A stretch of 64,000 nt of DNA. Source: a virus. Its lineage: Duplodnaviria > Caudoviricetes. The position numbers were made by a program. The DNA is taken from IMG/VR virus record IMGVR_UViG_3300021387_003827, positions 118,987 through 182,986 of that record. One strand, 5' to 3'. Of the stretch, positions 42,001 to 45,000 are shown in pieces (within the stretch, counting starts at the first letter, position 1; every line of letters starts with the position of its first letter).

Positions 42001-45000
42001 GAGAATATTACCGGGAGCAATCGAAAGTTATAAAAACCGTGATATTAAATGAAGCCTCAAATCCTTATATATAGGTTTAGGTTTTAATACACGCATTAAA
42101 GTATGGTGGTTATGCTCTGGATGTCGAGATGATATCTGGAGCATAAATTTTTTCTTACTTATGTTTGGAATAAAATATAATATAAATACTTGTGATAAGA
42201 TTTATAACGAGCTAATGATTCACTTAACTCCGATTTGTCCAAATAATTGTCACTTCTGTATAGACAAAAATAATAAAGGATCAGGACTTTTGACGCCAAA
42301 AATTGATAATATCATAAAAGCAATCGGAACTAAGAGTGAGCTCATAGACTCTATTACTATAAGTGGAGGAGAGCCACTATTATATTCAAAGAGTTGTTTA
42401 GATCTAATTAATGGGGTTAGAGAAAATTATCCACACCTGAAGATAAGTCTGATAACAACTCTTCCTACAACATATTCTGTTCCAGTAGATATTCTTGTAG
42501 ACAAATGTGACCAAGTTTCAATTTCTGTATTGAGTTATAGAAAGCACATTAGAAGTAAGATCTTAAATAATAATTATATAGTAGATATAAATGATACATT
42601 AAAGTCTTTACTCCCCTGGAAAGATAAAATAACACTCAGTTTTAATTTGATTAAGGATCTTTTTGATAAAGAGGAAGATGTATATTATAATCTAAAATAT
42701 TATAATACAATGGGATTTGTAAATTTTAGGTTACAAGAGCTTACTGACTGTGAAGATCTTTATGTATCAATAAATGATATATTCCCAAACTTGAAATTAG
42801 GAAATCCATTTTCGTGTGGATGTCTTAAGGAGGTTGATCTTAGGGAATACATTGGAGCGGACTTCTCTGGAAAAGTTAAGATAAAGAGAGCATGTTTTCT
42901 AGTTTGCTCTAAGTGTAGGGCAGACTTTAGGGATCTTATAAAAGCAGCTACACGAAAACCAAAGGAAAATACTTTTGGTGTAGTATATGAAAATGGAGTT
43001 ATAAAACCATATTGGGAATGAAAATAGATATTACAAGATTAGTAAAGAAAATAGTAAAAGAAAGAGCAAAAAGCAGTAGCGGTAGTGATGATGATTACGG
43101 CTGTGGTAGCAGCTCAGCCTATAATTATAGGTGTGGTAGTGGTAGCTCACCTGGAGGACGATGTTAAGTCCTCTTTTTGCTTTTCCCAGGGCCCGTAGTT
43201 CTTACTTCTGAAAATAAAACTTTAAAATAAATAATATGAAAATAGTATTGTCTAGTGTTGATATAAATGATCAACAGGGTCCGGGCATAGCTGGAATGAT
43301 AAAACATATTGAAAAAATTGGTAGAGTCAGTTATCAGTCCTATGATAGGATGACTGAAGATTCGGCCGAGAGATTTGTCGATATGTTGTCTAATAATGGA
43401 CACTGGAATCCACTCTCTTTCGGAACAGTGTATATGATTATTCCAGGATATGACGCAGACCTAATTGATAAATTTACTAATCCTCTCAATACACAAACTA
43501 CTCCTTTCTCTAGGTGGCATGTTACAGATGAGGGTGATATTCTTCTTACTACAAATTATAGAATATGTCTACAGCTTGGGGTAGGGATGGATATTATTGA
43601 AAGATATTGGAGAGAACCGACGGATAAGTTTTTTCATAGGGCTACCACACACTGGATTTGTTCAAGAGGAGTTTCCCACGAACTAGTCCGTCATGGTTGC
43701 CTTAGGTTTAATCAGGAATCTCAAAGATGGATCTCCTATTCAAAAGAAAGATTTGGTGGAGAGATCAAATATATAGTCCCAGAGTGGATATATAGGGTAA
43801 GAGATTATTATCTTTCACAATATCCTGAAGCTCTCGAAATGGATGGAGTCGAGTTATGGAATTTCTTTAAGGATAAAGACAAAACTGTATCGCGGCATCA
43901 TAATGATTGGGTGAGAACAGAAGAGGATTATATTTATGAAACTACAGTAGAAGACCCCAATTCATTCAAACTAAGACCAGAGGAGGCTAGAGGAGTATTG
44001 AATAATGATACAAAAACTGAATTATACGCAATAGGATATACTTCAGATTGGTTTTATCATGTTCCTGAGGGAAGTAAAGAGAAGGCTGGGTTCTTTGACC
44101 TAAGGTGTGACAAAGCGGCTCATCCAGACTTTAGAGTTCTCGCCGAAAGCCTAAGGGATCAAATGGCGTCAGCAGGATTTGATAAATTAAAATGAGCCAA
44201 AAATATCCATACTACTCTATATATTCTGTAGAGTGCGGTCAAATATCAAAAACTAATTCATATCGGTTATCTGAATCTAGAGAATCAGAAGAATTCCTAG
44301 AGACAAAAGCCAGAGAATTTGCTGATAAAACTGGAAAGGCACATTTGATTTTAATATTTAGAGGACCATATTCTTCAGATCTTGTAGAAGTAGTGTGGCC
44401 AGGAGGATTATATAAATGGAAAATACAGGGATAGTAGATTTTAAAGAAAATGTAAAGTCCAGATATTTTATGGAGTATGAAGACTTTTGTGAAGTAAGGC
44501 TTGGTATAGAGTATCCTGAAGAGGGGTACTGTTATAAATGCAGTAGTGAATTGGTTCCACTTACTTGGTTAGATCCCGAGTTTTACTTCCAACCTTGTCA
44601 ACATTGCAGCCAATCAAAAAGAAGAAATGCTGCAATAAAAGAGGAGATGATTATGGCCATGAAGGATTTTTACAATAAAATTCTTGGTGATAGGTATTAT
44701 CAATTATTCTTAGTTGATGGTATATATCTTTCTACAACATTTCCCCATAAATACTCCACTTTTAAGAAGGTTGTAGATTCTTTATCTCCTCCCTCTAGAA
44801 ATGAAATTTGGTTCTTAGATTGGAATCCGGGTTATCCAAAAATAATTTCACCAGAGAATCTCGATGGAATAAAAATAGTTAATCTTACTAAACTTTATGA
44901 CGAACCTGAACTTGGAAAGAAACAAATTAAGGTTGGAGATTATGAGATTACTATGCCGGAGATGATAGAATTTGATAAAAGACACCACTCACGATATGCC

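Follow-up and report, generated by a model that had tools for sequence, protein, structure and literature searches.

The window analysed here is a 64,000-nucleotide stretch forming the final 64 kb of a 183-kb phage contig whose G+C content is 36% (IMG/VR record IMGVR_UViG_3300021387_003827, positions 118,987–182,986). On its + strand it carries a two-gene unit of a giant gut or rumen phage, in which a gene for a radical S-adenosylmethionine (SAM) enzyme (rSAM) is followed by a 49-residue open reading frame (ORF) with a Cys-containing tail. TAG serves as a stop in this contig, which is thus read with the standard genetic code. A preliminary description of the window had assigned the system to 42063–43167. 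Of that range, 42161–43167 holds the gene pair itself, whereas 42063–42160 is intergenic and contains a terminator-like hairpin. The unit is composed of the following features:

42050..42160, + strand: intergenic leader of the unit, with two hairpins
42161..43021, + strand: rSAM enzyme gene, 286 residues, matching PF04055 and PF13353
42191..42193, + strand: codon of C11 (N-x-C-D motif), invariant in the family and on that ground a candidate auxiliary Fe-S ligand
42236..42259, + strand: codons of C26-x3-C30-x2-C33, by motif the site of the SAM-binding [4Fe-4S] cluster
42821..42823, + strand: codon of C221 (G-C motif), invariant, candidate auxiliary-cluster ligand
42893..42895, + strand: codon of C245 (K-R-x-C-F motif), invariant, candidate auxiliary-cluster ligand
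43018..43086, + strand: peptide leader, residues 1–23, a basic amphipathic helix with the leader motif I-T-R-L-V-K-K-I-V
43087..43167, + strand: peptide core, residues 24–49, and stop codon; presumed target of the enzyme
43153..43174, + strand: terminator-like hairpin across the peptide stop codon, 7-bp stem and T-run

The TGA stop of the rSAM gene shares bases with the ATG at 43018 (ATGA) that opens the 49-residue ORF, which ends at 43167, and the two genes are translationally coupled. This overlap had been proposed in the preliminary description, and both its coordinates and its reading frame were confirmed. The translated ORF likewise displays the basic N-terminus, the Gly/Ser-rich core, the Cys residues at 29, 39 and 49 and the C-terminal Cys ascribed to it there. 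A basic amphipathic start leads into an S-S-S-G-S-D-D-D linker and a Gly/Ser-rich tail; in the core, the acidic D-D-D is followed by Y-G-C-G, Y-R-C-G and a terminal G-G-R-C.

Nine gene-called near-relatives of the peptide, 49–54 residues in length, were found in a protein collection, on contigs whose listed lengths (355,017, 45,701, 19,551, 5,244 and 1,719 bp) agree with those of a near-identical rSAM cluster. Residues 1–23 are almost invariant among these nine, with a single change (A17S), and C29, C39 and C49 are invariant. The cores differ by in-frame insertions, often adding a fourth Cys and extending the Cys spacing from 10 to 11. A frame kept open across such indels provides strong evidence of coding. 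The spacing of exactly ten to which the preliminary description drew attention is present in the window but is incidental, as these core indels show. Among 1565 ORFs of at least 25 residues in the 183-kb contig, only the 49-residue ORF convincingly combines a Gly/Ser tail, at least two Cys and a Cys end; three other ORFs pass a crude Cys-tail filter and bear no resemblance to it.

A census of the family comprised about 70 non-redundant loci from three sources: 15 records of Prevotella Lak megaphages among GenBank phages (about 36% identity to the window enzyme), IMG/VR viral contigs of 4–410 kb found via homologue alignments (L005–L019 and L025–L093; about 28–40% identity), and five metagenome-assembled genome (MAG) contigs from a one-genome-per-species collection. 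A profile search of 1.84 billion protein representatives gave 88 cluster representatives at E ≤ 1e-30 and 287 at E ≤ 1e-10. The preliminary description had suggested asking whether rSAM homologues are consistently accompanied by a Cys peptide, and had taken a lack of such conservation as grounds for refuting its proposal. The proposal withstood this test: about 68 of 70 loci carry a peptide, next to enzymes only 28–40% identical to that of the window. This small ORF lies directly behind the rSAM gene in all but two of the loci that have it: in L009 it is 680 nt away, and in L016 two ORFs intervene. Automatic detection recovered the peptide in 61/66 non-redundant loci, and inspection by hand added those of L009, L016, L054, L067, L066, L073, L091, L097 and L099. 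L084 and L089 are the only loci left without a peptide after both automatic and manual inspection. Throughout the family the leader is a conserved, basic helix of the type T-K/R-L-L-R-K-I-V, the C-terminal core is rich in Gly and Ser and has 2–8 Cys, and the C-terminus falls at, or one residue past, a Cys. The pattern typical of peptides that are made by the ribosome and modified post-translationally (RiPPs), a leader plus a variable Cys core beside an enzyme, is thus found in about 68 of 70 loci.

In a quick maximum-likelihood tree, the 67 enzymes included fall into two clades. One of 21 rows (Shimodaira–Hasegawa-like approximate likelihood ratio support, SH-aLRT, 100) goes with peptides that lack His and end in Cys, and a clade of 46 rows goes with peptides bearing His-Cys or Cys-His motifs. 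The Lak phages and the window fall in the first. Partners in that clade are proteins of 89–166 residues with a helical N-terminal part and a repeated G-G-C-G-(S) tail that, in Lak and IMG/VR loci, always ends in Cys (G-G-C or G-R-C). The window enzyme, on the longest branch (2.17), is the most divergent of its clade and is paired with the clade's shortest peptide. The other arrangement is seen at about 50 more distant loci, where peptides of 25–63 residues contain at least two His-Cys or Cys-His motifs. Here the ORF often overlaps the end of the enzyme gene, the leader is of the type M-Y/F/W-T-K/R-I/L-L-R-K-I/V-V, and the core sets two, sometimes four or five, of the motifs in a Gly/Ser/Asp linker. 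Leader and core statistics were compiled for 35 unique short peptides. Exactly two core Cys are present in 29 of these and the last Cys is the penultimate residue in 31, while His precedes Cys at 74 of 83 core positions.

The leader motif aligns between the two clades. The window leader I-T-R-L-V-K-K-I-V-K can be superimposed on the T-K-L-L-R-K-I-V-K of the distant clade, and the longer partner proteins retain an I-T-K-K-I-like stretch; because of this alignment, leaders are taken as homologous across the family. Peptide labels change six times on the enzyme tree, compared with a mean of 26.7 for shuffled labels. Since related sequences share labels, this pattern shows clustering of peptide type with enzyme lineage rather than proven co-evolution.

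The family is essentially phage-only and nearly absent from bacterial genomes. A scan of 185,579 species genomes with an alignment of the His-Cys clade returned five true matches, all of them MAG contigs, and the enzyme occurs in no cultured phage of the GenBank phage collection, where its only carriers are Lak MAGs. A blastn search of the region against GenBank phages gave no match, nor did a viral-contig scan with a single protein; alignment-based scans did find the loci. Carriers range from 4-kb fragments to Lak megaphages of 550 kb. As a separate observation on the latter, a 462-residue ORF upstream of the rSAM gene in Lak-C1 (L002:1429-2817) requires 12 TAG codons to be translated as Gln in order to stay open, and the rSAM and tail-protein genes of Lak-C1 have no in-frame TAG.

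In an all-against-all BLAST of 140 flanking ORFs from 31 loci, no neighbour recurs except for one three-ORF cluster, DNA-methylase-like as judged from the L063 sequence motif alone. Because flanking genes are not conserved, the pair is a self-contained module. No gene for leader removal or export is conserved near the pair across the 31 loci. The absence of a transporter, a protease or a RiPP recognition element (RRE), as reported in the preliminary description, was borne out both by a Pfam scan of the window neighbours and by the comparison of flanks. Local associations are seen in parts of the family. At least ten loci (L005–L015, L028, L032 and L035) have a gp25-type baseplate-wedge gene directly after the partner, an assignment made on L011 (PF04965, 7.9e-13) and extended to the other loci through the same 129-residue ORF; in L011 a gp6-like wedge gene comes next. 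Just upstream of the pair, L011 (1252-2995) and L017 (854-1558) carry genes for a NadR-like nicotinamide mononucleotide (NMN) adenylyltransferase (phrog_3462, 1e-61) and a PnuC-like NMN transporter (phrog_1880). In Lak phages the pair is flanked by unrelated ORFs.

In the window, an MGS-like gene (41558-42052) precedes the pair and a ThyX-like gene (43236-44195) follows it. The 116-nt spacer before the rSAM gene is strongly structured (−36.3 kcal/mol, z = −4.77, 0 of 200 shuffles as good), and its second hairpin (42110-42146) has a 16–17-bp stem followed by a U-run. This hairpin is probably the terminator of the upstream MGS-like gene, insulating the pair. The hairpin at 43153-43174, weak when taken alone (z = 0.12 in a 101-nt context), would end a two-gene transcript. 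Three terminator-like sites were found in the region against 0.9 expected, and because such hairpins bracket the pair, it looks like its own two-gene transcription unit. No Rfam family, riboswitch or other, was detected in 41900-43400. With regard to the neighbouring genes themselves, the MGS-like gene encodes 164 residues with a methylglyoxal-synthase-like domain (PF02142, 2.5e-11), has no PHROG match and is unusual in a phage. The ThyX-like product (319 residues) matches Thy1 over residues 137–311 only, leaving about 135 N-terminal residues unexplained. Further downstream, a 373-residue ORF (45375-46496) has only a short, weak aldo/keto-reductase match (PF00248, residues 69–164).

In some family members the leader and core are joined to the enzyme. 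P0023 (346 residues) consists of the enzyme, a long helix with an L-T-K-K-L leader-like motif and a Cys/His tail; P0084 is an enzyme with a C-terminal tail similar to that of P0023; and in L067 enzyme and peptide are fused, possibly via a frameshift. These fusions link the functions of enzyme and peptide without saying how. Two further proteins have unusual architectures of a different kind. P0053 (695 residues) is a two-rSAM fusion with no Cys tail, in which an unrelated rSAM domain, with its Cys motif near residue 140, is added to a full family copy at 390–678. P0091 (5830 residues) gives 23 separate matches to profile positions 30–73 of the rSAM family and reflects either repetition of a short rSAM-like segment or an artefact of low complexity.

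The enzyme belongs to the radical SAM superfamily, with matches to PF04055 (2.2e-9; 38.2 bits against a cut-off of 29.5) and PF13353 (Fer4_12; 3.1e-7; 31.2 bits against 22) and a C26/C30/C33 motif that is invariant in 48 homologues. An AlphaFold2 model (predicted local distance difference test score, pLDDT, 80.5; predicted template modelling score, pTM, 0.83) shows a standard rSAM partial barrel and aligns with many rSAM structures at Z 14–17. The top Foldseek matches are viperin-like (E 9e-9) and MoaA (template modelling score 0.61). VIA-align gives a tie at Z 15.4–16.7 among GDGT-MAS, SuiB, MoaA, viperin, PFL-AE and CteB, favouring no single subfamily; CteB, SuiB and SkfB rank with the best matches by fold, at Z 14.3–16.5. 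The family profile searched against the PDB matched viperin-like proteins best (6.4e-17, profile positions 14–186 only), followed by SuiB (4.4e-10), YydG/EpeE (5.6e-8) and MoaA (5.6e-7). Searches of the ESM Atlas returned only unnamed viral 'radical SAM' clusters.

No NCBIfam family comes near its cut-off for the window enzyme, and the other family members behave alike. The preliminary description had drawn an analogy with the maturases of sactipeptides and ranthipeptides, but the enzyme is not a member of these SPASM/twitch families. With NF033640, a twitch model, it reaches 16 bits where 170 are required, SPASM maturase models reach at most 26 bits against cut-offs of 395–650, only two C-terminal Cys (C221 and C245) are conserved, Pfam detects no domain besides the rSAM ones, and no RRE is present. 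With only 25 residues before the cluster motif, there is no room for an RRE of about 90 residues. Viperin models (NF038283/TIGR04278) give 38.3 bits against 180, and the PDB match ends at profile position 186 of 286. MoaA (TIGR02666) scores 25.9 bits against 284, the best other family member reaching 40 bits. For HxsC (TIGR03977) the match is confined to the N-terminal 80 residues and scores 38.4 bits, the cut-off being 267.9; no second rSAM or HxsD-like gene is conserved nearby, so an HxsC system was rejected. PflA/NrdG activases score 21–31 bits against cut-offs of 126–232 (NrdG2, 31 against 131), and a role as a glycyl-radical activase was rejected since the conserved partner is a Cys peptide with no R-V-x-G-Y-type motif. 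A CXXX-repeat maturase (TIGR04115/TIGR04114), whose target has Cys at every fourth position, did not fit either: TIGR04115 is not among the matches listed, and Cys-Cys spacings in the peptides run from 2 to 16 with no period of four.

Conservation was assessed in an alignment of 48 sequences (mean column identity 35%). Invariant positions are the three cluster Cys, G-G-E-P at residues 69–72 (a GGE-type SAM-binding motif), P102, S122, E193, K261 and three further Cys, C11, C221 and C245, the last three also invariant in alignments A1, A2 and A5; R143 is nearly invariant. The extra C-terminal Cys of the preliminary description were therefore a mixed group. C221 and C245 are invariant but C219, C249 and C252 are not conserved, and the third invariant extra Cys of the enzyme, C11, is N-terminal.

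Combined, these data suggest that the rSAM enzyme and the 49-residue ORF form a self-contained enzyme–substrate module of a large, undescribed and essentially phage-only family, a reading to which we assign a probability of roughly 0.68. The proposal of a minimal phage rSAM and precursor-peptide system, already made in the preliminary description, draws support from the homology of leaders, from a core that follows the enzyme tree and from occasional fusions. Peptide-modifying rSAM enzymes (SuiB, CteB, SkfB and EpeE/YydG) are among the best fold or sequence matches, which we count in its favour. Taken on its own, the role of the 49-residue peptide as the substrate of the enzyme is quite likely. 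Given that role, thioether cross-linking is a reasonable proposal for the chemistry, at even odds or slightly below. Epimerisation, C-terminal decarboxylation or another change to Cys are possible alternatives.

Several observations weigh against the enzyme–substrate reading. All of its support comes from comparative genomics. The closest solved relatives by sequence are viperins and MoaA, which act on nucleotides, and Pfam and NCBIfam searches find no SPASM, twitch or RRE domain in the enzyme. No acceptor residue is conserved across the family, which leaves the thioether guess without specific support. In the AlphaFold2 model of the P0023 fusion (pLDDT 90.2) the helix is confident, and the Cys tail is disordered at pLDDT below 50. 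Finally, His-Cys dyads are classic metal ligands, and the peptide could be a metal- or cluster-binding partner.

A mechanism can be sketched for the enzyme–substrate module. The enzyme would bind the leader helix directly, with no RRE domain. C11, C221 and C245 would ligate an auxiliary [4Fe-4S] cluster in which one iron stays open, a cluster we propose because the three invariant extra Cys fit such an arrangement. Three-Cys auxiliary [4Fe-4S] clusters with an open iron occur in MoaA, TYW1 and Aux I of CteB, and NifB is an example of a single cluster with ligands from either side of the SAM motif. In sactipeptide and ranthipeptide synthases, a substrate Cys binds the open iron while H is abstracted from the acceptor carbon. 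By analogy, a core Cys thiolate may dock on the open iron of the phage enzyme, in the manner of the substrate Cys at Aux I of CteB, and the 5'-deoxyadenosyl radical would take H from a neighbouring residue, most easily a Gly C-alpha. A sulfur-to-carbon bridge, sactionine- or ranthionine-like, would then form, one per Cys. Bridges from sulfur to Gly C-alpha are our preferred guess, because the cores are Gly-rich and the Gly C-alpha H is the easiest to abstract. The outcome would be a basic helix followed by a small, cross-linked C-terminal knot. Since the pair is not accompanied by an exporter or protease, the product most likely acts within the infected cell or is freed by phage lysis.

The alternative that survives best, though we consider it unlikely, keeps the peptide as a partner rather than a substrate. 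Its Cys and His would bind a metal or an Fe-S cluster, or complete the auxiliary cluster, and the rSAM enzyme would act elsewhere, for example on a nucleotide. The peptide would then serve as an integral electron donor or as a ligand of the cluster, the part that Dph3/Kti11 plays for Dph1-Dph2. Viperin-like enzymes as the best sequence and Foldseek matches, the His that flanks Cys so consistently in the short clade, the natural fusions of enzyme and tail and the lack of an accompanying protease or exporter all speak for such a role. So do the nucleotide and NAD genes around the pair in the window, L011 and L017 (ThyX, MGS-like, NadR-like and PnuC-like). However, the number of Cys varies from 2 to 8, and between 3 and 4 among near-identical relatives, which would be odd for a fixed ligand set, and His is absent throughout the window's clade. 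The layout, a leader with a repeated core, is that of a precursor peptide. Viperin and MoaA scores are far under their cut-offs, with a match that stops at 186, before the part of viperin that binds cytidine triphosphate, and few basic residues are invariant that could serve a triphosphate (K261 invariant, R143 nearly so).

Slightly less probable still is that the Cys-tailed protein is a baseplate- or tail-associated component of the virion, cross-linked or hardened by the rSAM enzyme. The longer partners of the window's clade, with their 89–166 residues and helical N-terminal part, and the gp25-type gene directly downstream in at least ten loci would suit a structural role. The baseplate neighbourhood is, however, confined to one subclade; the window has MGS-like and ThyX-like genes in its place and Lak phages have unrelated ORFs, no neighbour recurs across the 31 distant loci, and in L011 genes of NAD salvage lie upstream of the pair. 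Peptides of 25–36 residues, and the 49-residue peptide of the window, would also be very small for structural proteins. The weakest alternative, that the 49-residue frame is an accident of a G/C-rich, low-complexity spacer and that the rSAM enzyme works alone, has in its favour an ORF that is short and of low complexity, the lack of a Pfam, PHROG or NCBIfam family for any of the peptides and overlapping ORFs in other frames, and it was rejected as highly improbable and in conflict with the comparative data: at least nine relatives have this ORF as a called gene, with indels in-frame only, equivalents follow about 68 of 70 homologues despite enzyme divergence to 28–40% identity, and one of 1565 contig ORFs convincingly shows the feature.

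Returning to the enzyme–substrate module, an extended version of it is tentative and, in our estimate, somewhat short of an even chance. The pair would represent the first RiPP-like class that is essentially virus-confined, defined by a compact, viperin-sized non-SPASM rSAM enzyme, a C11/C221/C245-type cluster, RRE-free recognition of the basic leader helix, a small knot made by cross-linking Gly-flanked Cys (His-Cys in most lineages) and a product that serves the phage. That product is possibly a metal-binding head on a basic helix, and it would act in takeover or counter-defence within the host, or on neighbouring bacteria after lysis.

No description of the enzyme–peptide pair was found in the literature searched, which included papers on Lak and jumbo gut phages. 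An rSAM gene beside a precursor peptide is already known as a kind of system; what is new are the enzyme family, the precursor family, the proposed RRE-free leader recognition, the proposed cluster ligands and the restriction to viruses. In gut and rumen viromes, few 'auxiliary' genes are called more often than rSAM genes, which are usually left as 'radical SAM protein'. One large phage rSAM family now has a partner, a tiny ORF often missed by gene callers. If the enzyme does modify the peptide, phages would produce post-translationally modified peptides of their own from a minimal kit of two genes, and a new RRE-free mode of leader recognition, probably with a new arrangement of the auxiliary cluster, would follow. 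With a length of about 1 kb, the pair would also give enzymology and peptide engineering a compact system that is easy to express. It is a concrete handle on how huge phages of anaerobes affect their hosts or competitors.

Among known systems, McbA, the precursor of microcin B17, resembles the phage peptide in core composition. It carries Gly/Ser runs with Cys behind a leader and is matured by a YcaO-type cyclodehydratase and a dehydrogenase, whereas the phage pair has an rSAM enzyme. A YcaO-type, microcin B17-like pathway was rejected, as no such genes lie near any locus examined. In borosins of the OphMA type, the methyltransferase carries its own core peptide and modifies itself, and P0023, P0084 and L067 similarly bear leader and core fused to the enzyme C-terminus. 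The chemistry differs (rSAM rather than SAM N-methyltransferase), and fusion is exceptional in the phage family, where that of L067 may be a frameshift artefact. Viperin and MoaA are the closest solved rSAM cores and are similar in size to the phage enzyme. Viperin has no auxiliary cluster and MoaA has one held by three Cys; unlike viperin, the phage family combines an obligatory peptide neighbour with three additional invariant Cys. From the sactipeptide and ranthipeptide systems (CteB/SCIFF, PapB/freyrasin and AlbA/subtilosin) the phage pair is set apart by an enzyme of 286 residues instead of about 400–450, lacking a SPASM/twitch motif and an RRE, by putative auxiliary ligands consisting of one N-terminal and two C-terminal Cys, and by the lack of an exporter or protease and its near absence from bacterial genomes. 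It nonetheless shares with them an rSAM gene beside a short precursor composed of a leader and a Cys core, and a number of core repeats that varies from one precursor to another.

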